DNA of 64,000 bases from an uncultured Gammaproteobacteria bacterium. Its GTDB lineage: Bacteria > Patescibacteriota > Patescibacteriia > SBBC01 > CAIJZX01. A program made the position numbers and the translations under genes. Of this stretch, positions 1 through 62,870 are shown piece by piece; the first letter of the stretch is position 1; each line of letters opens with the position of its first letter. Location of the stretch: NCBI GenBank assembly GCA_964383765.1, contig CAYLHT010000001.1, positions 36,998-100,997 of the forward strand. Direction: 5' to 3'. The notes under the pieces were generated by a model. It was given only the letters and a program-made list of their open reading frames with translations. It was not told the origin of the DNA and did no database searches.

Positions 1-1600
<1,600 letters not shown>

Positions 1601-34970: not shown

Positions 34971-36193
34971 TTGGCCAAGCGTTTATCACCGCCCTACGTT
35001 CGATCTGGACCAAAAAAACCAGGTCAATCTTAACGATGCTCGGCGTGATTATCGGCGTCTCTCAAATTATCGCCTTGATCGGTCTTGGGCAGGGCGTTAA
35101 GAAATCAATTTCTGACCAGGTTACTCAACTTGGAACCAATGTCTTATTCGTTCTGCCGGGGAAACTCAAGGGCAACAATGGCAGTTTCAATCCTGCGGCC
35201 TCAGTCGGTGCGTCGACCTTGACCGACGATGACGTGAAGCTGCTCCGACAACAGCCGGAAATGAGGGCTATCGCTCCGACGTCATTATTGGCCGGTTTAG
35301 CCACTGCCGGTAAGACGATTGCTAATGGCGCCCTTCTGGTTGCAACTGAACCAGATTACTTTTCCATCATCACCACGGTCAAATTGACCGCTGGCCGCAC
35401 GTTCACGCTGAAAGAAAATACCGACAAATCCAGAGTCGTCGTGATTGGGAAAAGCGTCGCCATCCAATTGTTTCCGTTAGTCCCAGACAAGGATGTGATT
35501 GGGAAAAAGATGGACATTGGCAAGAATGAGTTCACGATCATCGGCCTGGTTGAAGATAAGGAATCGAATAGTCCGTTCGGACCGAATAACGAATTCAATT
35601 CAATGGTGATTATGCCGTATGTGACCGGCAAGGCCACCAATCCGAATGCCCAAATTTTCCGGGTGGTCATGAAAATTGATCCGAACGCCGATACCAAAGC
35701 GTTCGCTAAACGCATGACCAGTCTGCTGAAGAATCAACACGGGGTTGAAGATTTCACTGTCTTCACGCAAGATGACCTGCTCGGCGTCGTGAACAATATT
35801 CTCGGTTTGATCACGACCGCGATTGTCGGTCTGGCCTCGATCTCGTTGATTGTCGGCGGAATCGGGATCATGAATATCATGCTCGTCGCCGTGTCCGAAC
35901 GCACGAAGGAAATCGGCTTGCGCAAAGCTTTGGGTGCAACACGTGGGAATATTTTGTGGCAATTCTTGACAGAATCAGCAATCATCTCGCTGTTGGGTGG
36001 CGCGATTGGCGTGGCGGTTGTATCAATTGCCAGTATTATTGTGAAACGGAAAGCCAACCTGGATATTATTGTGAATCTTCATTCGATTTTGATTGCGACC
36101 GGGTTCTCACTTGGCGTTGGGCTGTTGTTTGGCTTGTTGCCAGCCTTCCGAGCAGCACGGAAGGATCCGATTGAGGCACTGAGATATGAATAA
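34967..36193 (+). CDS. ABC transporter permease (MacB-type, FtsX domain)
   Basis: N-terminal TM, large periplasmic domain, then C-terminal FtsX 3-TM bundle; 408 aa; 4-nt overlap with the ATPase gene. Confidence 0.85.
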
Positions 36194-37520: not shown

Positions 37521-38579
37521 CTAGAAGCGTCGGCCGAGCAGGATCGTGAGTGATCCAGCCGGCAACCATTCGTTCTTGAATTGCGTGTCGCGATTACCAA
37601 AGCCAATCGCGGTCCGAGCCTCAAGGTCGAATGACCTCGAGGACACCCGGGCGACGACACCCACCTTCCCGAACACAGTGCGTTCGGTGTAGTGGTAGGT
37701 CGGGTCCAATCGCCAATCGCCTTCGGCGCCAAGCACCCATGACCATGGCTGCTTGACGCGTCCGAACTCGACTTCACCGGACCACACCTGATCATCGTTG
37801 TTCTTGGCGAACCGACGACCTTCATATCCGGTCAGGCTGGTGACGCGTCCGTTGACGACGTGGCTGAGTCGCACGCCGATGATCGGCATGTGGTAGTTGC
37901 TGCCGGTGGCGACGTGCCAACCGATGACCGGCTCGATCGTCCACATGGCCGGTCGGCTGATCACGTACGGCCGCTCGAATACCGGCGGCGGTTGAGGCAG
38001 CGGCGTGACCTGGGTGACAGGCGTGGCGACCGGTGCGGTGAAGACTTGATACACGCCGCGCCGGTCGTTGATGATGACCGTTGCCAGTACCGTTGAACGG
38101 TACCCAGTCTTGGCGTTGACCCAATTCGCACGGGCCAAACCCAAGCTGTAATTATTCAGTTGCGACAGGTTGCGCGTGTTGCGCTTCCCGTCGAACCGTT
38201 GCGGGTCGGTCGCCCCGATCAGATACCCGCCGGGGTGGAGACGCTGCAGCTGGTCGACCGCGATGTTGCGCGATGCACCCGGGGTGAACCCCGAGACGAA
38301 GATGACACCCGTGACGCGCTCACCGCGGTAGGCGAAGAGCGTGTCGAAGACGGCGTCGGACTGCGGCGTGCGGTCCGGTACCTCGGAACGTCCGGCGTCC
38401 CGCTTGATGGCGCTGTCGACATCCTTCGTATCTGAGTCCCGAGCCTTGTCTCGACCCGCACCGTTCATGATGGCATGGGTGGGACTGTTGAAGGTTGGTC
38501 TCAGATGAACGCTTGGCTGAGCCGAAACGATGCCTGGCAGCAGGAGGCACAGGCCCAACAATACGACTGCTGTTCGCAT
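37521..38579 (-). CDS. secreted beta-rich protein ending in a C-terminal Phe (outer-membrane-barrel-like)
   Basis: Signal peptide MRTAVVLLGLCLLLPGIVSA, alternating hydrophobic beta-strand pattern, C-terminus ...ILLGRRF; GC-rich. Confidence 0.45.
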   Translation of the reverse strand: MRTAVVLLGLCLLLPGIVSAQPSVHLRPTFNSPTHAIMNGAGRDKARDSDTKDVDSAIKRDAGRSEVPDRTPQSDAVFDTLFAYRGERVTGVIFVSGFTPGASRNIAVDQLQRLHPGGYLIGATDPQRFDGKRNTRNLSQLNNYSLGLARANWVNAKTGYRSTVLATVIINDRRGVYQVFTAPVATPVTQVTPLPQPPPVFERPYVISRPAMWTIEPVIGWHVATGSNYHMPIIGVRLSHVVNGRVTSLTGYEGRRFAKNNDDQVWSGEVEFGRVKQPWSWVLGAEGDWRLDPTYHYTERTVFGKVGVVARVSSRSFDLEARTAIGFGNRDTQFKNEWLPAGSLTILLGRRF

Positions 38580-40236: not shown

Positions 40237-42623
40237 GATGTTAGTGATGAAAATCTTTTTAAGCGCAAGGAATTGAGAACGACAAACAATGACGAAAACG
40301 CCATCGCGCCCGAAGCAATAATTGGGCTGAGCGTCACTTGAAAGGCGGGATAGAGCACGCCGGCCGCAATCGGTAAGCCAAGCAGATTGTAGATAAATGC
40401 CCAGAACAAATTCTGTTTGATATTGCGGAGCGTGGATCGAGCCAGGTCGAGAGCCGTGACTACCTGTTGCAGATCATTAGCCACAATGGTAATTCCTGCG
40501 GCTTCGCGCGCGACGTCCGTGCCGGAGCCCATGGCGATGCCAACATTGGCTTGAGCTAAAGCCGGCGCATCGTTGACGCCGTCGCCGACCATGGCGACGC
40601 GTTGACCTCGTGATTGTAATTCTTTGATCTTGGTCGCCTTATCTTGAGGCAAGACATTCGCGATGACGTTGGCCGGATCAATCCCAGCCTGCTGGGCGAT
40701 GTGGCGGGCCGTAATGTCGTTATCGCCGGTCAGCAGATAGGCCTGAACTCCACGCAAACGAAGTTGTTCAATCGCCTTGGCGGTTGTCGGTTTAATCGTA
40801 TCGGCTACGCCAATCACGCCGGCGCATTCGTTATCAACTCCAACCTGGACTGCGGTTTTGCCGCCCATGGCCAACTCTTCGCGATTCAAGCGGCATCCTT
40901 CCGCATGCATGCCCAGCCGCTCCAGTAACCGTGGAGCGCCAACGACCACACGCTTGCCATTAATTTTCCCACTCACGCCAGTGCCGGGATGGGCTTGAAA
41001 ATCCGTGACAGGCAAGAGTGTAAGTTCCCGTCGTTTTGCTTCAGCCACAATCGCTTGTCCAATCGGATGTTCACTTCGTGATTCGAGTGATGCAGCGTAT
41101 TGCAAAATGAAATCACGACCGAGGACATCAGTGACCGCGAGTTTGCCAGTCGTTAACGTTCCGGTTTTATCGAAGACCACTGCATCGATTTTTTGCAGAC
41201 CTTCTAGCGCTTCGGCATTGCGGATGAGAATCCCATGCTCTGCGCCCTTGCCGACGCCGATCATGACGGCGGTGGGTGTCGCGAGTCCTAATGCGCACGG
41301 ACAGGCGATGATCAAGACGGTGACCGCAAGGATCAGCGCAAAACTCAGCGGCGTGACACCTACCGGCGGGAAGATCATCCACACCACAAACGTCAGGATC
41401 GCAATGCCAATCACGATGGGCACGAACACGCCCGAAATTCGATCCGCTAAACGCTGAATTGGCGCCTGGGAACTTTGGGCTTCTTCCACCAGGTGAATAA
41501 TTTGACTCAGCAGCGTCTGCCCGCCGACTTTGGTGGCACGGAACGTCAGCGTGCCATTGGCGTTGACCGTCCCACCATAGACCGTACTCCCAGCTCGCTT
41601 TTCATTCGGGAGACTTTCTCCGGTGACCATCGCTTCGTCGACCGCCGATTGTCCTTCGGTCACGATGCCGTCGACCGCGATTTTTTCGCCCGGACGCACC
41701 ATGATCAGGTCATTCACCTGAACTTGATCGAGTGAAATTTCAACTTCCTGTCCGTTCCGGATCACGCGTGCAGTTTTGGCCGCCAGCCCAGCCAGCTTGC
41801 GAATCGCGTCGTTGGCGCCGGCTTTCGCCCGCGCTTCCAGTAATTTGCCAAGCAGAATCAGGGTGATGATCACCACCGTCACATCAAAATATGTCGCCGG
41901 CGCATGCCCGCTACCGCTGAACGCGTTTGGCCAAACCACGGCCACCAGGCTGAAGACATATGCGGCGCCGGTCCCCACCGCCACCAGCGTATCCATATTG
42001 GCTTGAAAAAACTTCAACGATTTCCAGGCACTGATGTAAAACTGCGATCCCGCCCAAACAATCATCCCGCTCGCGACGATTAACTTGACGACGTTCCATA
42101 GGTTTTCCGACCCGACCGCGACACCAATCATCCGAGCAATATCCGGAAACATCACGATGACTGAGGCCACGATACCAACGGCAACCTTTGTCTGGAGGGT
42201 GCGGAGTTCCAGCTGGCGGAGTATGCGAGCATGATCGTGGACACTATGATCCAAACCACCCGTTTCGTGGGCGTGTTCGTGGGCATGGGTGTGGTCACTC
42301 TTCCCCCCAATCCCCCTCCTCTCAATTGAGAGGAGGGGGGTGTCGGGGGTGGAGTGAATGACCGCGGTGTACCCAAGGTCGGCAACGCGCTGACCAATAG
42401 TGTCAGGTGAGCACTGATGAGGATCATACTCAACTTTTGCCCTTTCGGTCGCATAGTTGACCTGCGCTGATGTCACCCCCGGCAATTTCTTGACTACGCG
42501 TTCAATACTTTTTGCGCACGAAGCACAGTGCATTCCAATCACCGGGAATGTCAACGTCGACTCAGTCATCCTACTTGACGAGGTTGATTGGTTTTCCTGC
42601 CGCGAACGCTTCAACATTGGCAA
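40233..42623 (-). CDS. copA: copper-translocating P1B-type ATPase with an in-frame MITE-like insertion in the HMA-to-TM linker
   Basis: HMA motif [11 protein letters not shown] motif [11 protein letters not shown], phosphorylation site DKTGTLT, HP and GDGVNDAP motifs. The element at 42296-42356 encodes ...[21 protein letters not shown].... Confidence 0.9.
42296..42356. repeat. nested palindromic MITE-like element, copy B (CACTCttcccccc..CCCCCTCCTCTCaattGAGAGGAGGGGG..gggggtGGAGTG)
   Basis: Outer arms CACTC/GGAGTG and inner 12-nt perfect arms around AATT. Shares its core and outer arms with copy C at 59611-59682. Confidence 0.7.
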
Positions 42624-43569
42624 TGGTCGTGTCGAGGATTCGGCGCAAAGCTTCGCCGGTGTTGAAGGCGTTATGCGGGGTGATGATGACGCGCGGATGA
42701 TTCAAGAGCATGTGGTCTGCCAGAACGGTTTGCAGGTCACACTTGGTTTGGAACACCCCGCTTAGCAATTCACGCTCTTCTTGAATTGCGCATTCCTCTT
42801 CGAGCACGTCTAACCCAACACCGGCTAAGTGTCCGGCATCGAGCACTCGCAACAGCGCTTGAGTATCGATCAGTGAACCCCGCGCAGTGTTGATCAGGAA
42901 GGCCGTCGGTTTCATCAGCGTCAGCCGTTCTTGGTTGAGGAGGTGATGGGTGGCCGGTGTGGCCGGGGCGTGCAAGGAGACCGCGTCACTCTCGGACAAG
43001 ATTTGGTCGAGATCGTGATAAGCGAAATTCAGTTGTTGGGTGAGCTCGGGTCGAGGGTGCGGATCATAGGCGATGACCTTCATCCCAAAACCACTGGCCA
43101 TCCGAATCGCATGTTGCCCAATCTTGCCGGTGCCAATCACGCCGAAGGTTTTTCCGGCCAGGTCAACGCCGCGCAAACCTTCGAGACGGAAATCACCGTG
43201 CTTCGTGCGTTCAACACTCGGTACAATCTTGCGTGTTAGCGCTAATAAGAGGGCAAAGGCTTGTTCGGCGACCGTGTTCTCGCCATACGAGGGCACATTG
43301 CTGACAATAATCCCGCGTTGCTGGCAAGCCGCCACGTCAATGTGATCAAACCCGGTGGACATGGTCGCTACCATCTTCAGGTTGGGAAACTTTTTCAAGG
43401 CCTCGGCCGTGATTGGGCTGTAGATAAACACAATCAATGCTTCGGGGTCGCCGAGGTCGCCAACTTGTTCGAGATGTTTAGTGCTAAATTTCCCGGCGGG
43501 GAATTTCTGCTTCAACAAATCAATTTCCCACTGTTCGAGTTCAACTCCCGCGAGCGCTAGATTTTTCAT
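42571..43569 (-). CDS. D-isomer-specific 2-hydroxyacid dehydrogenase (NAD-binding)
   Basis: [31 protein letters not shown] Rossmann motif and catalytic R/E/H region; overlaps copA by about 50 nt. Confidence 0.8.
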
Positions 43570-50752: not shown

Positions 50753-51706
50753 ATGGCGTCGTTCTACCGACGGGAGGTACTCCAGCAAGCTTGGGCCATT
50801 ATTTGGCGGAAGAAGTATTTGTGGTTCATCGCCTTTTTCGGCGGCCTGGCTTCCTACGGGGGCGAAGTCAATTTTCTGTTCCGAAAATTTAATGCGGTCG
50901 CGACCTTCCAGTCGTACCTGGTCGCCATTCGCAAACTATTCGTTGAGGGGAAAGCCCAAACCTATCTCCATCAATTTACGCACGTTTTCCAACAGGCGCC
51001 CGGAGTAATCTTGGGCTATCTTGGCGTTGGCCTCGCGATCCTCGTGATCGGGCTCTGGTTGATGTTCGTGTCCCAAGGCGCGGTTATTCGCATTGTTGGT
51101 CGGTCACAAGAGAAGAAGTCTAGCGATTTTCTTGATGGCGTGGCCACCGGCGCGGAGAAATTTTGGGCAATTGTGCAGCTTAACATCATTGCTGTTCTAC
51201 TGGGATGGGCCGGGTGGATTATTGTGGCCGGCCTACCGGCGACCATTTATTTCCTGTCCGGTCAGGTAGCCTGGGCGGAAATCGCCCGAGTGGGGGCGGT
51301 GGTGTCGGTACTCTTGAGCGCTATTATCACGCTGGTCACCCAATATTCAACGGCAGCGGTGATCTTGCGAGGCCTCAGTCCGGTGCCGGCGTTAGCGGAT
51401 AGTTGGAAACTGTTCCGTCGCAATGTTGCGGTCAGCATCGAAATGGCATTGATCATTTTCCTGATTAATCTCGGGATCTTGGTTGTTTCGTTTGGAATCT
51501 TCGACGCCTTCGGTCTGTTCTTCTCGGCGGCCGGCTTGATTACACTCCTGGTCTTAATCGCGGTTGAGTTCGGTGCACTGAGTGCCTTCAACCTGTCGGC
51601 CTGGACAATTCTCTACCAGAAACTCGTGGCCGGCCGGGTCAACAGTAAAATCGGCGAGTGGACAACGCAGCTGGCGAGTTTCGCCAAGAACAAACAAACC
51701 ACCTAA
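50753..51706 (+). CDS. hypothetical polytopic membrane protein
   Basis: 317 aa with 6 or more TM helices. Confidence 0.45.
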   Translation: MASFYRREVLQQAWAIIWRKKYLWFIAFFGGLASYGGEVNFLFRKFNAVATFQSYLVAIRKLFVEGKAQTYLHQFTHVFQQAPGVILGYLGVGLAILVIGLWLMFVSQGAVIRIVGRSQEKKSSDFLDGVATGAEKFWAIVQLNIIAVLLGWAGWIIVAGLPATIYFLSGQVAWAEIARVGAVVSVLLSAIITLVTQYSTAAVILRGLSPVPALADSWKLFRRNVAVSIEMALIIFLINLGILVVSFGIFDAFGLFFSAAGLITLLVLIAVEFGALSAFNLSAWTILYQKLVAGRVNSKIGEWTTQLASFAKNKQTT

Positions 51707-51759
51707 CTTGAATTTGCCGAGTCGGAGTGGTAGAGTTCGGGCGGATTTACTGTAGCTGC

Positions 51760-51939
51760 GGGCAGGTAGCTCAGCTGGTTAGAGCAGTCGTCTTACCCGC
51801 CTGCCTAGCCGGCCTCTAGCTCAATGGCAGAGCGTCCGTCTTATACACGGATGGTTCCAGGTTCGAATCCTGGGAGGCCGACTAGGACGGCGGGCAGGTA
51901 CACGACCGGTCGATGGTTCGAATCCATCCCTGCCCACCA
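51760..51939 (+). tRNA. tRNA-Val(UAC)-like gene split by a 103-nt insert after anticodon nt 36 (exons 51760-51796 and 51900-51939)
   Basis: The 5' exon is GGGCAGG-TA-GCTCAGCTGGTTAGAGC-A-GTCGT-CTTAC. The 3' exon is AC-ACGAC-CGGTC-GATGG-TTCGAAT-CCATC-CCTGCCC-A-CCA. The acceptor stem has 7/7 bp, the anticodon stem 5/5 bp, and the reconstituted loop is CTTACAC. Confidence 0.5.
51810..51881 (+). tRNA. tRNA with anticodon UAU (tRNA-Ile2-like), embedded in the insert of the split tRNA-Val
   Basis: CGGCCTC-TA-GCTC-AATGGCA-GAGC-G-TCCGT-CTTATAC-ACGGA-TGGTT-CCAGG-TTCGAAT-CCTGG-GAGGCCG-A forms a perfect cloverleaf; no CCA is encoded. Confidence 0.7.
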
Positions 51940-52643
51940 TGAATATTCTGATCACCGGGGGTAGTAGTGGCATTGGGCAAGCGATTGCCCAAGCATGTGC
52001 TCAGGGCGGGCATGATATATTTTTGGTGGCGCAGGAGGTCGGGAAGCTTGAACGAGTTGCCAATGAATTGACCGCGGCGACGGGTCGGAAGGTCTTATCA
52101 ATGACTGCCGACGTGTCTGATCCGAAGCAAGTCGAGGCCATTCAGCAACGATGTCGGAAAGAAAAGTTTTCACCCGACGTGCTCGTGCTCAACGCCGGAA
52201 TTTGGCTGAGCGGCGGAATCATGGGCGTCAAACCTGAGGAATTCGATCAAATTATGCACGTCAACGTGGCGTCAATGTTTTATTTTATCAAAGCTTTCCG
52301 CGAAACACTCAAACGCAGTGTCTATCCACGCATCATCATCACCGGCTCAACCGCGGGACTCGAGGGCCATCACCGGAGTGGTGGTTCACTCTACAGCGTT
52401 AGCAAATGGGCGGTGCATGGTTTGACAGTCAATCTGCGCCAAGAATTAATGTCCGATAACATCGGCGTGACCCATATCGCTCCTGGGAGCGTGATGAGCG
52501 CGATGTGGGACGCTGATGAAGCTGAGCCGAAAAGAATGCTCGAAGCAGCTGATATTGGGAAAGTTGTCTCAGCACTACTGGAGTTGAGCCCGCAAGCCGT
52601 TGTCGAAGAAATCGTGATTCGGCCGATGGGTGGGAATATTTAA
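51939..52643 (+). CDS. SDR-family short-chain dehydrogenase/reductase
   Basis: TGGSSGIG cofactor motif, catalytic YSVSK (YxxxK). The ATG overlaps the last A of the upstream tRNA CCA. Confidence 0.85.
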   Translation: MNILITGGSSGIGQAIAQACAQGGHDIFLVAQEVGKLERVANELTAATGRKVLSMTADVSDPKQVEAIQQRCRKEKFSPDVLVLNAGIWLSGGIMGVKPEEFDQIMHVNVASMFYFIKAFRETLKRSVYPRIIITGSTAGLEGHHRSGGSLYSVSKWAVHGLTVNLRQELMSDNIGVTHIAPGSVMSAMWDADEAEPKRMLEAADIGKVVSALLELSPQAVVEEIVIRPMGGNI

Positions 52644-52652
52644 TCAACAGCT

Positions 52653-53282
52653 GTGACTACTCAAGTCACTCAATCCAAACTCTCCGTCCGCAAAGCCTTT
52701 CAGCGAATGTGGGTGGCGGGTACGCTGGGCGCGTTTTTCACGGCGATTGTTCGAACGATCCCGATCGACATTCAACGCTTACAGTCCGGGCCGGACGCCG
52801 GCTTGATTCTGGACCGGGCGCTGCGGTATGGGTATCTCCTGTGGTTGCTCAGCTACTTTTTCATCACCAATCTTCGTCTTGAACAAGGTGAACATCCATC
52901 CCGACGCGACTTGGTCTTTGATGTGATTCAGTCTGTGGCTGGGCTGAGTGCCGCATACGCCCTGGGATTCGTGTCGGAAACTCGAGGGTTCGGTCCCCAT
53001 GAATCCGCCGGAGCTATCATAAGTGCCAACCTCACCATTCTTAGTATTGCTCTCATTGCATTCTACCTGTTTCGATCAGAAGCTGACCGACGGATTCATC
53101 AGCTCCGATTTGTTGGCGCAATCCTAGCAGCTGCGTCCATCCTAACGGCCAGCGTGGTGACATCAACAATCTGGATGTTGACGAGCTCAGCCTTATTTCT
53201 CCTCGCGCTCTGGGTGACTCTGTGGCGATACATCCGATTGCGCCTGCGCCCAGAGTCACCAAGTCGAACCTCTACTCTTTGA
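52653..53282 (+). CDS. hypothetical membrane protein
   Basis: 209 aa with 5-6 TM helices. Confidence 0.4.
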   Translation: MTTQVTQSKLSVRKAFQRMWVAGTLGAFFTAIVRTIPIDIQRLQSGPDAGLILDRALRYGYLLWLLSYFFITNLRLEQGEHPSRRDLVFDVIQSVAGLSAAYALGFVSETRGFGPHESAGAIISANLTILSIALIAFYLFRSEADRRIHQLRFVGAILAAASILTASVVTSTIWMLTSSALFLLALWVTLWRYIRLRLRPESPSRTSTL

Positions 53283-53648
53283 GGGTTCCATCGCGGGCCA
53301 GAGATTGGATCGCGCCTGAGCGTGCTTGTGGTACACTTGGCTAGCCACCGTTCCGGCCTTTGACCGGGAAGGAGGTGATCCTCAGTGACGGCCGGAATTG
53401 CGGCTCGAAACTTGAATGGATCAACCTTTGAACGGAAAGGTGGTGGCCATGGACTTTACATGGCTGGCCTCGTTGCTCGGACTGTTCCGAGAGATCGGAA
53501 CGTTCGCCGCAGTCGAAGCCGATCCGGACGGACCCTGCGGTCCGAGCCGGCATTTCCCCGGCTAGTGGACGAAGGTCCAACTGCCGGTTCATCGCCTTGC
53601 GATTCAGTGGGTTCCCCCCTCCTGGATCTCGAGGGATCTATTGACCAG

Positions 53649-53676
53649 GCGCACGCAGGACGCGTGCGCCGTTTTT
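53649..53676 (+). terminator. strong rho-independent terminator closing an ORF-free GC-rich region
   Basis: GGCGCACGC-agga-GCGTGCGCC followed by GTTTTT. Confidence 0.65.
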
Positions 53677-53792
53677 CTAAAAAGTTTTTCTGGTGGGCGG
53701 TAGAGGATTCGCCCCTGCGGGGCCGGGGTCGCCACCGGCGACCCGTTGCTCGACGACTCGCAACCCTCTGACCTTTCTTTTTACCTCTCCGC

Positions 53793-53870
53793 TGGTGCGC
53801 GCATCTGGATTTGAACCAGAGACCTTCACAATGTCAATGTGACGCTCTAACCGGGCTGAGCTATGCGCGC
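53793..53870 (-). tRNA. tRNA-Val(GAC)
   Basis: Minus strand GCGCGCA-TA-GCTCAGCCCGGTTAGAGC-G-TCACA-TTGACAT-TGTGA-AGGTC-TCTGG-TTCAAAT-CCAGA-TGCGCGC-A-CCA. Confidence 0.9.
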
Positions 53871-53902
53871 ACAAGCAGAGAAATAAATATGTAAAGTTCT
53901 TC

Positions 53903-53971
53903 CTTCACAATGCCTGCCCTGAGCCTGCCGAAGGGTCAATGTGACGCTCTAACCAACTGAGCTAACCGCCC
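53903..53971 (-). pseudogene. tRNA-Val(GAC) 5' portion (acceptor to anticodon stem) with a 23-nt insert after nt 36 and no adjacent T-arm
   Basis: Minus strand GGGCGGT-TA-GCTCAGTTGGTTAGAGC-G-TCACA-TTGAC-[CCTTCGGCAGGCTCAGGGCAGGC]-AT-TGTGA-AGG, followed by non-tRNA sequence and then the complete tRNA-Val(GAC). A possible matching 3' remnant ...GGGGCGAATCCTCT-ACCGCCC-A-CCA lies at 53691-53725. Confidence 0.45.
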
Positions 53972-54062
53972 ATGAAAGCACAAGAGAAAATATCATATCT
54001 CCTCCATATCATCAAGCATACCAAAACACCCCGCCAGGCGGGGTGTTGTGTTTGAAAGCGAT

Positions 54063-57000
54063 TTAGCTTTCTAATCCGAGATCACGGCGATAGCGCTTGA
54101 GACCCACGAAGCCTACAATCATCAAGATCAAACCGATCATGAAGATCATGTAGTCGCGGAGACCAACGCCGGTCGTCGCCAGACCGAGGACTTGTGGAAC
54201 CTTGACGGTGACTTGGGCGGTTGCGCTGACGGGATCAACTCCGTTGGCGGCTACGACTGCAGTGTTCGTGTAGACGCCAGCTTTAACATCCGAACCAACT
54301 TTGACCGCATAGGTCAGCGTGGTCGAAGCGCCGGCGGCGAGCGTACCGAGCGACCATGACTTGGTGCTGTCGCCGCCATCCACAAAGGTGAAGCCGGTTG
54401 GTAGCGTGTCGGTCATAACCGTATCGGTCGCATCGCCGTCGCCGGTGTTGGTGATCGTGACCGTGTACGTGACCGTTCCGCCCGGATTAACCGTGGTTGG
54501 ATTCGCCGACTTGGCAATGGTGAGATTTGGCGATTTGGCGGCCAAGACTTGCGGGATCCGGACATCCACATTTGATGTGGCTGAGACCTGGGTGGTGTTG
54601 TCGCCCTTGGCCGTGGCGGTGTTGGTATGAATACCAGCGGCTGCGGCCGGACTAATGTTGACAGTGTAGGTCACCGTCACGGAAGCGCCTGGCGCGAGAT
54701 CACCGATGGACTGCGAGCTGGTGGTGCCGCCGCCGAGGAAGGTGAAGTCAGCCGGCAGGAGATCAGTCAGAATCACGTTGTGCGCCATATCGGTCGCGCT
54801 GGCGCTGTTGGTCACTACCACCGTGTAGATGACTGTCGTTCCCGGATTCGTGAAGGTGGTCAAGTTATTGACCTTGGTGATGGAGATGCTCGGCGCGGAA
54901 CTGACCGTGGTGCGGGCGCCGTCGCAGACTTGATCGGTTTGATCGGTGTCGAAGCAACCGGTGTTACTGATGACCGTGTTATTCGCAATCGGGCTGGCTA
55001 CCTTGACGACTAAACCAACCGTTCCGCTCGCGCCTGGCGCTTTGGTGCCGAGGTTCCAGGTGACCGTCTTGGTCGCGGCGTTGAACGTCCCGCCGTTGTC
55101 GGCCGAGACGAAGGTGGTGTTGGCCGGAATGACATCAGTAATGACGGCGTTGGTGGCCGTAGTATTTCCAGCGACCGTCCAGGCTAGCGAGTAGCTAATG
55201 TTTCCGCCGGCGTTAACTGTGGCCGGACCAGTCTTGTCGACCGTGATGGTCGTCAGATCCTTGGTGTTCGTGAAGACACAGATAATATTTTGATTATTGT
55301 GCAGGCTCAGGTCGACCGAAGTGGTTTGCGGTAGGTTCTGGTCGAGGTTACAGCTGACACTGGTGAAGTGGAAGCCAGTCTGCATGTTCTCAGAGATAGT
55401 GTAGGCGCCGGTGTCGAGCGTACGGCTTTGACCGGTGGCGATGTTTTGTTCGCCGCCTTGGATATTCCAGCTCCAGTTCGTCGCGCCGAAGACGTCGACT
55501 TTACCGTCGCCGTCCGTGTCGACATTCTTCAGGACCGTAATCGTGCCAGTTTGGCGGGTGTTCGTGAACGTACACACGACAGCGCTGCCGTTGCCGACGG
55601 TGATGCTACCGTCTTGACCCGCCGAGATCGGTTGACCGTTGTCGGTGCAGACGAGCGCGGGGGTGTAATCGCTCAACCCACCATTTTCCGAGACATAATA
55701 CGTTCCGGTGTCGACGGTATTCGATCCGGTCGTGCCATTCGCACCGACCACGAGTTGGCTATCAACTTCGTTGCCCCCAGCCGTGGTGCCGATCATCAAG
55801 GTCGTTGTTCCGGCGGTTCCAGACCAGACTTTCTTGAGTTCAATCGTACCTTGCTGACGTGTGTTCGTGAACGTGCAAACGACCGCGTGACCCTTCCCAA
55901 CGGTCAAAGAGTTATTGGCGCCGGGGGTGACGGCTTGACCATTGTCGGTGCAAACGAGTGCGGAATCGTAGTTCGTCAGTCCGCCTGTTTCTGACACATA
56001 AAATGTGCCAGTGCCAACGGTTTTGGTACCAGTTGTGCCGTTGCCTGAAACTGGTTGGCTAGCAATTTGGCTACCACCAGCCGTCGAGCCGATGTTCAGT
56101 GTGGTCGAACCGGCTGTACCAGACCAGATTTTCTTGAGTTCAATGGTACCCGTATCGCGGGTGTTCGTGACGGTGCAGGTTTTAACATCGCCGCCAGCCA
56201 CCGAACCGCTGCAGTCCGCGCTGTAGCCGGCGGTAAAGCCAGTCGGACCGCTTTCAGTGACATTGTAATTACCAACCGTAACCGTCTTGGTTGTACCGGC
56301 TTCTGAACCTGGGAAGGAGTTACCGCCGGTCGCAGTTACGCCGTTGATGGTCATGGTGAAGTCACCGGCGACGTTTTGACTGCCACCGCCATTGACGACA
56401 TGTTTTATGACCGTTAATTTCGGTGCAGCGACCGTAACCTTGGGTTGGGGTCGGGCTTGGGACGGCGCATTTTGATCATTCGTAATGTTGGCGACGTTGT
56501 GCACGATGGTTTCGCCGACCGGGAATGATCCGCCGGTCAGGGTGCCGTGGATAGTAATACTACCCGAGGCTCCCACCGCTAATGTCCCGATATTCCAGAC
56601 ATTGTTACCGCTGGATGGTGCTGGGGTTGAGCTCGTGAACACGAAGTGTGAATCGTAGGTCTCCGTGATCACGACGTTCGTTAAGTCGATGTTACCCGTG
56701 TTCGAGTAGTTCAAGGTGTAGGTTAAGGCATCGCCGGGATTGGCCGTGCTCTTATCAACGAGTTTTTCCAAGGCCGACTTCGGTTGGATCGGAACCGTGA
56801 TGGCGCTGTTCTGGTCGATGTTGTAGTGGAAGCTTGAACCAGACTGGTCAAGCACGGTGTAGAGCAAGTCTTGGTTACCGGCGGCTAAGGCGCGGAAGTG
56901 GAAGTCCGAGTTGACGGTGTTGCCTTCGTTGGTGGCGTAAATATCATTTTCGGTATTGCCATCACTGTAGGCCGTCATCACCGATTCGAGTTGCACGCCC

Positions 57001-62796: not shown

Positions 62797-62870
62797 ATGC
62801 TCACCTCCTTTTCCGGCAGAGCCGGACCCGGCTCTGCCGGACGACTCTGGTTGATAGATGATGAATAAAG

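Follow-up and report, generated by a model that had tools for sequence, protein, structure and literature searches.

A predicted masked Shine-Dalgarno sequence of extreme length on a structured, terminated candidate transcript in a tRNA-flanked islet of a patescibacterial genome

Introduction

What is the meaning of a perfect, 13-14-nucleotide (nt) complement of the 16S ribosomal RNA (rRNA) 3' tail that is followed by a start codon and by nothing that resembles a protein? This question is raised by a 64-kb stretch of the contig CAYLHT010000001.1, here referred to as the window (the whole of the DNA analyzed), from a genome of the Patescibacteria (candidate phyla radiation, CPR), a group in which, to our knowledge, post-transcriptional regulation is essentially unstudied. 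Between an open reading frame (ORF) for a membrane protein, which ends at 53282, and a tRNA-Val gene on the minus strand (53793-53870), both correctly placed by a first-pass annotation of the sequence, lies a segment of 408 nt (53283-53690, plus strand; hereafter, the element) that contains this complement, a Shine-Dalgarno (SD) motif in form, together with numerous predicted hairpins and a terminator.

The first-pass annotation took the element for a discrete, terminated non-coding RNA (ncRNA) and proposed for it the role of a ribosome-binding leader or sponge, a remnant of an rRNA-operon spacer or an unusual small RNA (sRNA). Our analysis agrees that the element is discrete, strongly structured, non-coding and terminated, and finds the functional proposals without support. 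The simplest reading, an SD at canonical spacing before a start codon, had been left unweighed, and the predicted pairing of the motif with two internal anti-SD segments had been missed. Here, we describe the motif, the coding potential, predicted structure, transcription signals and genomic setting of the element. Among several explanations, we tentatively prefer that of a translation-initiation site, genuine but masked, on a transcript that is short, highly structured and terminated.

Results

A Shine-Dalgarno motif of extreme length before a GTG codon

The window has a single copy of the 14-mer GAAGGAGGTGATCC, which lies on the plus strand at 53368-53381, 9 nt away from the position first assigned to it (53359-53372), and, as had been claimed, is a perfect complement of the canonical 16S 3' end, with 13-14 contiguous pairs, an extended complementarity of the kind known from STAB-SD elements. 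Complementarity was scored against the canonical tail (...GGAUCACCUCCUU), the host's own tail lying off-window: because the 16S gene in the window (1-1600, minus strand) is cut by the window edge and ends at model position 1488 of 1533, the complementarity refers to the canonical tail only. GGAGG-type SDs before other ORFs of the window indirectly support a canonical anti-SD in this genome. Compared with the bacterial model, ~156 nt are inserted into the same 16S gene close to its 5' end (window ~1362-1530, minus strand).

The 13-mer AAGGAGGTGATCC did not appear in any of 100 dinucleotide shuffles, and the earlier estimate of its chance occurrence, about 0.002 per 64 kb under a uniform expectation, is arithmetically correct. 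In 85 related loci of CPR and Chloroflexi (843 kb in total), matches to the SD template reach 11 nt at most; inside the window, the runner-up is also 11 nt (62811, minus strand, before a 111-amino-acid (aa) ORF), followed by matches of 10 nt. The sequences GAAAGGAGG, AAGGAGG, AGGAGGT, GGAGGTGA and the 11-nt AAAGGAGGTGA serve as SDs before window ORFs of 50-180 codons, with spacers of 3-8 nt. These GGAGG-type SDs, 7-11 nt in length, precede real-looking ORFs at a spacing like that of the GTG at 53385, the arrangement AAAGGAGGTGA-4 nt-ATG at 62811 (minus strand) being an example of an ordinary strong SD. Judged by these sites, the genome clearly uses SDs, and the motif at 53368-53381 is the long extreme of their distribution in the window. 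As a bare sequence, the 13-mer exceeds chance, yet SD motifs are functional sequences, and this one is rare but resembles a ribosome-binding site (RBS) in form and spacing. The GTG that opens the downstream ORF follows the 14-mer by 3 nt, and not by 5 as first reported, and AGGAGG by 9 nt, the canonical distance. Elsewhere in the window, at 42938, there is a 10-nt SD, AGGAGGTGAT, behind which the ORF has only 28 codons.

The initiation region also contains an internal direct repeat, CCTTTGACCGGGAAGGAGGTG (53357-53377) and CCTTTGAACGGAAAGGTGGTG (53425-53445), both on the plus strand, 86% identical and 68 nt apart. In each copy, a CCUUU...AAGG mini-hairpin precedes an SD-like run with a start codon behind it (GTG 53385 and ATG 53449, respectively), and this arrangement suggests a local duplication of the initiation region.

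Coding potential behind the start codons

The element had been described as free of ORFs. It is not: mechanical ORFs of 128 and 49 aa are present on the plus strand and of 83 and 43 aa on the minus strand. The longest, opened by the GTG at 53385 and ending at 53771, exists as annotated, and the description of its product as arginine-rich (22 of 128 residues) and not protein-like fits all that we found. On a codon log-ratio trained on 26 long ORFs of the window, it scores -0.09, compared with 0.21 +/- 0.08 for true 128-codon windows and -0.37 +/- 0.21 for wrong frames, which places its codon usage ~4 standard deviations (sd) below the genes of the window. An exhaustive HMMER search of 1.84 billion representatives yielded three weak, multi-stretch, low-complexity matches to unrelated repeat proteins, which we regard as spurious, and no homolog was found among ~15 billion proteins in all. 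The products of the 128-, 49-, 83- and 43-aa ORFs have no match in Pfam, NCBIfam, PADLOC or PHROGs. The neighboring FtsH and SDR proteins from the same contig are present in the protein collection, from which the 128-aa product is missing. Finally, the ORF reads through the strong terminator and into a segment that aligns with conserved non-coding, tRNA-linked DNA of relatives.

The ORF at 53385-53771 is therefore not a credible protein gene. That it is nevertheless an ordinary gene, perhaps with a sequencing frameshift, is an explanation for which a strong SD, a start codon and 128 open codons can be cited, and which the codon usage, the absence of homologs and family matches, the absence from the protein collection and the course of the frame through the terminator bring close to refuted. 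The frameshift variant was considered separately and is unlikely because no frame of 53283-53790 shows a sustained coding signal.

A second, weaker SD-like site, CGGAAAGGUGGUGG, lies before the ATG at 53449, which opens a 38-aa frame; the 49-aa version of this frame begins at the ATG at 53416. Its codon score of 0.04-0.07 is ambiguous: lower scores are found for 10% of true-gene windows and higher scores for 16% of stop-free non-coding windows. Both this SD and its ATG are predicted to be paired, with a net SD binding of only -1.7 kcal/mol, and neither homologs nor family matches were found for the frame. We also considered a pseudogene fragment of the gene at 37521-38579, with which the element shares a 45-nt DNA match of 80% identity (38351-38394), and rejected it because no protein similarity stands behind this match; apart from that marginal match, no complementarity of the element to a target was identified.

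A predicted fold that engages both halves of the motif

The plus strand of the element folds with a z-score of -5.45 against shuffles and the minus strand of the same segment with -4.55; for 62 control windows of 400 nt on the plus strand, the mean is -0.92 (sd 1.34, minimum -4.26). The plus-strand fold has 12 G-U pairs and the minus-strand fold 7. The region is GC-rich, as had been stated, with 59.3% GC compared with a window mean of 53.2%, which puts it in the top 5% of 408-nt windows. Its 5' part (53336-53452, plus strand) is predicted to fold at -52.8 kcal/mol (z -4.65), as well as none of 200 shuffles did, and its 3' part (53440-53680) at -123 kcal/mol (z -6.65), with a centroid identical to the minimum free energy (MFE) structure. 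The two hairpins singled out by the first-pass annotation, GGACCctgcGGTCC at 53530-53543 and CCGGCatttccCCGG at 53547-53561, are present. Very stable folds are also predicted for other 400-nt plus-strand windows, namely, 42001-42400 (z -4.07), 54001-54400 (z -4.26) and 35001-35400 (z -3.68).

In the predicted 5' domain, a closing helix (53344-53355 paired with 53433-53444) surrounds the SD, the GTG and two anti-SD segments, such that both halves of the SD have internal partners. The upstream CCUUU would pair with the GAAGG of the SD, and MFE helices 53373-53376/53424-53427 and 53377-53381/53418-53422 would join the remainder to the downstream GGAUCAACCU (53418-53427), which resembles the 16S tail. 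The predicted unpaired probability of the SD nucleotides does not exceed 0.37 and is mostly ~0, so that an SD sequestered by intramolecular anti-SD segments, a feature of type I toxin mRNAs, is found here as a thermodynamic prediction only. The predicted accessibility of AGGAGG declines from 0.3-0.5 in the nascent RNA to 0.1 or less once the GGAUCAACCU segment and the 3' arm have been transcribed.

The duplex of the SD with the canonical 16S tail is predicted at -29.4 kcal/mol, at an opening cost of 8.7-14 kcal/mol. The resulting net SD:anti-SD binding, -15 to -21 kcal/mol, compares with -1 to -9 kcal/mol for nine SD-led starts of the window. Opening the whole footprint at GTG 53385 would cost 24 kcal/mol, the highest value among the starts compared.

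These predictions bear on the idea that the first-pass annotation favored, a dedicated ncRNA that binds the 16S tail and pairs with the anti-SD of the 30S subunit, either as a STAB-SD-like 5' stabilizer of its own RNA or as a titrating decoy or sponge. The motif has the longest SD complementarity in the window and in the 843 kb of related sequence, its predicted net binding is far above that of any other SD-led start compared, it lies near the predicted 5' end, the ORF behind it is not protein-like, and start-codon-independent SD stabilizers have a precedent in Bacillus (PMC5737220). However, the motif is buried in the predicted free RNA and stands at an ideal distance from a start codon that a decoy would not need; only ~300 nt lie downstream to be stabilized, with no cargo gene following; and the element has been found in one genome, in one copy, with no sign of conservation. 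Furthermore, a single RNA species would probably titrate ribosomes only at very high abundance. We consider a dedicated 16S-tail-binding RNA unlikely, and the ribosome sponge as such possible but unsupported. Slightly less likely still, in our estimate, is a structured, conditionally opened anti-anti-SD RNA that arose de novo in the tRNA-flanked islet of this reduced-genome patescibacterium and captures or parks 30S subunits, as a decoy or as a start-codon-independent 5' stabilizer.

Limits of the putative transcript

A lineage-style rule picks out a single promoter-like site on the two strands of 53150-53900, the candidate extended -10 promoter TGgTACACT, and the transcription start predicted from it (~53344) coincides with the first base of the closing helix. 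Its 12-mer TTGTGGTACACT is also found upstream of RluD in the relative L092, and TACACT is the -10 element of the TTGnnn-17-TACACT tRNA promoters in the relatives L086 and L081. We infer that transcription may begin here.

At the other end, the intrinsic terminator reported inside the 128-aa ORF is present and strong, with coordinates slightly different from those given at first and a loop of 5 nt: it reads GGCGCACGC-AGGAC-GCGTGCGCC at 53648-53670, and GTTTTTCT comes next. No other terminator-like site was found on the plus strand from the SDR gene to the tRNA-Val locus, and on the minus strand, the stem lacks a T-tail. Because no terminator separates the element from the upstream, co-oriented genes for the SDR oxidoreductase and the membrane protein, it may also be their 3' untranslated region (UTR). 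No relatives of the 209-aa membrane protein were found in genome, metagenome or viral contigs.

A hypervariable islet between tRNA genes

Relatives were identified by anchoring on FtsH and SDR, which gave nine syntenic loci (L081, L082/83, L084, L085, L086-91, L092/93 and L094). The FtsH of the window is closest (76-86% identity) to proteins partly labeled Candidatus Kerfeldbacteria. The conserved frame of the locus is FtsH - membrane protein - tRNA-Ile(UAU) - [variable] - tRNA-Val(GAC) - [DUF11 protein, hydrolase] - RluD - L19, where the variable slot of the relatives contains nothing, GpsA, SDR alone, two small ORFs, or unrelated GC-rich, ORF-free DNA. Thus, the slot from tRNA-Ile to tRNA-Val (51700-54070 in the window) is a hypervariable islet in Kerfeldbacteria-like genomes and holds, in the window, the SDR gene, the orphan membrane-protein gene and the element. 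Neither the element nor the 209-aa protein was found in any of the nine syntenic relatives, nor the element in the other collections searched, which is the outcome of the comparison with relatives that the first-pass annotation had called for; its proposal of an unusual sRNA finds no conserved copy there or in the databases.

This setting brings up an explanation that we hold to be nearly as likely as the masked initiation site, namely, that the element is a relic or filler, barely functional or non-functional DNA in a rearrangement-prone islet, with the SD and GTG left over from the start of a decayed or truncated gene. The hairpins would then be palindromic filler that gathers around the tRNA-Ile and tRNA-Val genes, or at most a 3'-end stabilizer and terminator of the operon. 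The hypervariability of the locus among relatives is in line with a relic, as are the disrupted and nested tRNA copies that flank the element, the unrelated hairpin-dense segments with z-scores of -5 to -7 at the same locus in L081 and L086, and the lack of both a counterpart in any relative examined and a coding signal in any frame. However, a perfect 13-14-nt SD would be expected to erode fast without selection, yet this one is intact and at canonical spacing from a start codon; the matched partners of the SD halves and a closing helix that starts at the predicted transcription start give the element an organized look; and the supposed ancestral gene is not named by a homolog, none having been found for any frame. 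Compactness, a general feature of CPR genomes, also speaks against a relic.

The tRNA genes themselves have an unusual organization. At the left side of the islet, one tRNA lies inside another: joined together, 51760-51795 and 51899-51939 (plus strand) form a perfect 77-nt tRNA-Ile(UAU), as recognized by ARAGORN, which is split at the anticodon by a 103-nt insert that itself holds an intact 73-nt tRNA-Ile(UAU) (51810-51882). Identity to the uninterrupted tRNA-Ile of L085 is 93-94% for the outer halves, and that of the inner gene to the tRNA-Ile of L082 is only ~81%; the nested layout is also seen in L081 (4941-5084). The A of the SDR start codon (ATG at 51939, where the deposited SDR protein starts; 100% self match, P0124) is also part of the CCA that ends the outer tRNA-Ile 3' half. 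On the right side, a disrupted native tRNA-Val(GAC) spans 53691-53975 (minus strand). Its 5' part (53972->53898), 100% identical to L082 over 41 nt, has a 23-nt insert directly after the anticodon, and its last 21 nt (53711->53691), again 100% identical to L082, form the right-hand boundary of the element. The insert between the two parts holds an intact, more divergent tRNA-Val (53870->53793, 84% identical to L082), and the whole complex is inverted relative to most relatives. Partial copies of tRNA 3' ends are scattered through the islet, for example, at 11141-11167 in L082. A conserved module of ~100 nt, GGGTCGCC-GGTG-GCGACCC CGGCCCC-NNNN-GGGGCGAATCC...CCGCCCACCA, which ends like a tRNA acceptor with CCA and has no match in Rfam, follows the inner tRNA-Val in the window and tRNA-Ile copies in relatives. 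We found no literature on nested bacterial tRNA genes of such a layout, and these neighbors may be more interesting biology than the element itself.

In the SDR-to-tRNA-Val spacer of L086 (4735-5034, minus strand; identical in L087-L091), we noticed a candidate small-peptide gene with a TTGACA-17-TAGAAC promoter, a 115-nt leader of three hairpins, a bidirectional terminator and the SD AGAAAGGAG, in which AGGAG is paired to an upstream CUCCU; its product is an 18-aa hydrophobic peptide, MDFALVLVLVDILWWIRR. This mini-gene is a mechanistic parallel to the element, not a homolog.

The presence of a hydrophobic mini-gene with a masked SD at the syntenic site is in line with the possibility that the element is a type I toxin-like mRNA, in which the 38-aa peptide starting at ATG 53449 (MDFTWLASLLGLFREIGTFAAV...) is kept untranslated by structure, as in hok, tisB and aapA. 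Consistent with this, the SD-like GGAAAGGUGGUGG lies 4-5 nt before the ATG, both being predicted to be paired, the frame ends 85 nt before the terminator, the N-terminal ~20 residues are hydrophobic or amphipathic, and the frame contains the only sub-window with a positive codon score (+0.24). The codon score of the whole frame is ambiguous, though; R and E break the hydrophobic stretch, and the half toward the C-terminus is polar and rich in Pro and Gly. A promoter for an antisense antitoxin was not found on the minus strand of 53150-53900, and it is another frame that the extreme SD serves. The peptide has no family match and does not significantly resemble the L086 peptide or any other sequence; a homology of the 38-aa peptide (MDF...) to MDFALVLVLVDILWWIRR was considered and dropped as evidence. 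Overall, a toxin-like mRNA appears improbable.

Known RNA families and further copies

At the gathering threshold, no Rfam family was found in the element when the whole window was scanned, and a permissive scan of 53000-54200 (E up to 10) gave only noise in the element, with CC2171 the best at 14.4 bits compared with a gathering score of 75. The families that the first-pass annotation had listed for checking (tmRNA, RNase P, SRP, 6S and leaders) thus do not reach even weak scores, and ARAGORN found no tmRNA. There is no similarity to the 16S gene in the window (1-1600) or to its 5' leader, which argues against a remnant of an rRNA-operon spacer, the 3' flank of the 16S gene and the internal transcribed spacer (ITS) being off-window. 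That the element is a decayed piece of an rRNA-operon spacer, or belongs to a known RNA class as a divergent representative (RNase P, tmRNA, SRP, 6S, T-box, riboswitch or ribosomal-protein leader), is, therefore, highly improbable: a length of ~335-395 nt falls in the size range of RNase P and tmRNA, the RNAs of CPR are often divergent, and there is the complementarity to the 16S tail, but the scans returned noise, no regulated gene follows on the plus strand, and the 16S gene of the window and its leader show no resemblance.

The element is a single copy in the window, where no second copy and no repeat family were found. It remained unmatched in distant-mode searches of phages and plasmids; viral contigs contained no match to the two-part pattern of SD and anti-SD mimic or to the internal-repeat consensus; and an exact 20-mer search of metagenome contigs returned two chance matches inside coding sequences (KEVILSG). 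When 511 kb were searched with a covariance model built from the single sequence of the 5' domain, the only match was the element itself. Unmatched in relatives and in the searched databases, the element looks like a one-off curiosity, not a new RNA family.

Table 1. Positions of the features in and around the element, in window coordinates except where a relative is named
Feature	Position	Strand	Basis or remark
SDR oxidoreductase	51939-52643	+	upstream, co-oriented; syntenic in relatives
Orphan 209-aa membrane protein	52653-53282	+	upstream, co-oriented
Candidate extended -10 promoter TGgTACACT	53329-53337	+	predicted start ~53344
Predicted 5' domain with closing helix GCCACC.GUUCCG / CGGAA.GGUGGU around SD, GTG and both anti-SD segments	53344-53447	+	fold prediction
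Upstream anti-SD segment CCUUU	53357-53361	+	predicted pairing with GAAGG 53368-53372 (MFE helices)
Extended SD motif GAAGGAGGTGATCC	53368-53381	+	13-14-nt perfect complement of canonical 16S 3' tail
GTG start codon	53385-53387	+	3 nt after 14-mer, 9 nt after AGGAGG; canonical spacing
Mechanical ORF, 128 aa, GTG start	53385-53771	+	judged non-coding, at most orphan
Downstream anti-SD mimic GGAUCAACCU	53418-53427	+	predicted pairing with AGGU and GAUCC of SD
Weaker SD-like site CGGAAAGGUGGUGG and ATG 53449, 38-aa ORF (MDFTWLASLLGLFREIGTFAAV...), TAG 53563-53565	53433-53565	+	ORF list
Predicted array of five stable hairpins	53445-53637	+	fold of 53440-53680
Intrinsic terminator, 9-bp stem (8 GC pairs), 5-nt loop, T-run	53648-53677	+	terminator scan
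Right-hand boundary: 3' end (T arm, acceptor, CCA) of disrupted native tRNA-Val copy	53691-53711	-	100% over 21 nt to L082 tRNA-Val 3' end
Conserved ~100-nt module	53691-53792	-	alignment; L081 5100-5310, L092 20-130, L093 1-40

Discussion

The reading that we tentatively prefer, a genuine but masked initiation site, starts from the motif, its spacing, the terminator, the fold statistics and the lack of coding signal and of detectable conservation; the masking, the ribosome capture, the use of the promoter and any biological role are what we infer from models. The 13-14-nt SD, with a GTG at canonical spacing, would be an unusually strong RBS ~25 nt from the 5' end of a transcript of ~335 nt, if transcription begins at the candidate promoter, or of ~395 nt, if the element is the 3' end of the SDR/membrane-protein operon; in both cases, the transcript would halt at the strong intrinsic terminator. 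In the free RNA, the 5' half of the SD would pair with the upstream CCUUU and the 3' half with the downstream GGAUCAACCU, both pairings being locked by the long closing helix. Owing to the length of the SD, its pairing with the 16S tail is predicted to win thermodynamically despite the masking, so that slow or conditional capture of 30S subunits would be likely. Capture might lead to translation of a non-conserved frame (that of the GTG or the 38-aa one from ATG 53449 nearby) or to a ribosome parked near the 5' end that shields the RNA from decay.

Several observations weigh against a functional initiation site. All statements on structure and energy are predictions that assume a canonical 16S tail. 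By our own arithmetic, a start codon would be expected within range of a random SD ~28% of the time, and stop counts indicate that a frame as long as the 128-codon ORF is not rare in GC-rich, stop-poor sequence. The codon score of this ORF sits at the mean of stop-free non-coding frames (-0.10 +/- 0.16), and a word-indexed search of 5.8 billion proteins returned no match to its product, not even a self entry. Behind an excellent RBS and GTG, the frame has its stop (53769-53771) ~95 nt past the terminator and, consequently, none before it. The candidate promoter is weak by itself: TGNTACACT occurs twice in the window compared with 0.7 occurrences expected, and a consensus scan detected no sigma-70 site. 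At the syntenic locus of L081-L086, L089 and L092-L094, the element was not found by blastn (word size 7), nhmmer or shuffle-tested local alignment; given that no relative or second copy was found, a covariation test is impossible and conservation cannot be shown. Finally, unrelated hairpin-dense, ORF-free DNA occupies the locus in L081 (5464-5770, z -7.06) and L086 (4735-5034, minus strand, z -5.04), and because such DNA recurs here, a strong fold alone does not prove function.

If the masked initiation site is functional, it would represent an extreme case of an SD masked by internal anti-SD segments, in which the length of the SD offsets the masking, and could be a natural test case for the limits of SD:anti-SD pairing in ribosome parking, RNA stabilization and conditional translation. 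The present value of the element is that of a caution: a strong predicted fold and a striking motif do not establish a new RNA family, especially at a locus where unrelated hairpin-dense filler recurs. In this sense, the element would be a masked RBS on a structured transcript, not a new class.

Comparison with known systems

Ordinary SDs of the window, such as AAAGGAGGTGA-N4-ATG (62811, minus strand), GAAAGGAGG-N5-ATG (7568) and AAGGAGG-N5-ATG (60063), share the core and the spacing with the element. In contrast to these, the SD of the element exceeds every other SD of the window and of the 843 kb of relatives by 2-3 nt, it is fully paired in the predicted fold, and the ORF it serves is not protein-like.

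With 3' UTR-embedded sRNAs and REP-like hairpin arrays, the element has in common its position directly after a two-gene operon, without an intervening terminator, as well as a possible internal promoter, a terminator shared with the operon and multiple stable hairpins. Unlike REP-like arrays, it is present in a single copy in the window, and no repeat family was found.

The type I toxin mRNAs, for example, aapA3/IsoA3 and aapA1 of H. pylori, hok and tisB, are short, highly structured, independently terminated transcripts (PMC6733600, PMC5416894), which are silenced by SD-sequestering hairpins (PMC6733600). In these mRNAs, CU-rich anti-SD segments both upstream and downstream of a strong SD pair with it, and the masking rises during transcription (PMC6733600, PMC5416894); the same is predicted for the element. 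The element differs in having no small hydrophobic toxin ORF behind the extreme SD, the GTG frame being Arg-rich and 128 codons long; no antisense antitoxin promoter and no sequence family were found for it; it lacks a strong 5'-3' long-range lock; and its SD is far longer.

The 5' stabilizers of Bacillus (the cry3A STAB-SD and the hbs and aprE leaders) carry an SD-like, perfectly 16S-complementary sequence near the 5' end, a position that the SD of the element would share. In B. subtilis, a ribosome at a strong SD-like sequence stabilizes the RNA that lies downstream, for which no start codon is required, and a bound 30S subunit or 70S ribosome could block 5'-to-3' decay with or without productive translation (PMC5737220, citing Agaisse and Lereclus 1996). 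Whereas the Bacillus elements guard long coding mRNAs, the element described here precedes ~300 nt of hairpins and a terminator, and its site, ~25 nt from the predicted transcription start, is masked by predicted structure and has a start codon. The element belongs to no known family, and in its proposed mechanism, it would resemble SD-sequestering toxin and leader mRNAs, on the one hand, and the STAB-SD stabilizers of Bacillus, on the other.

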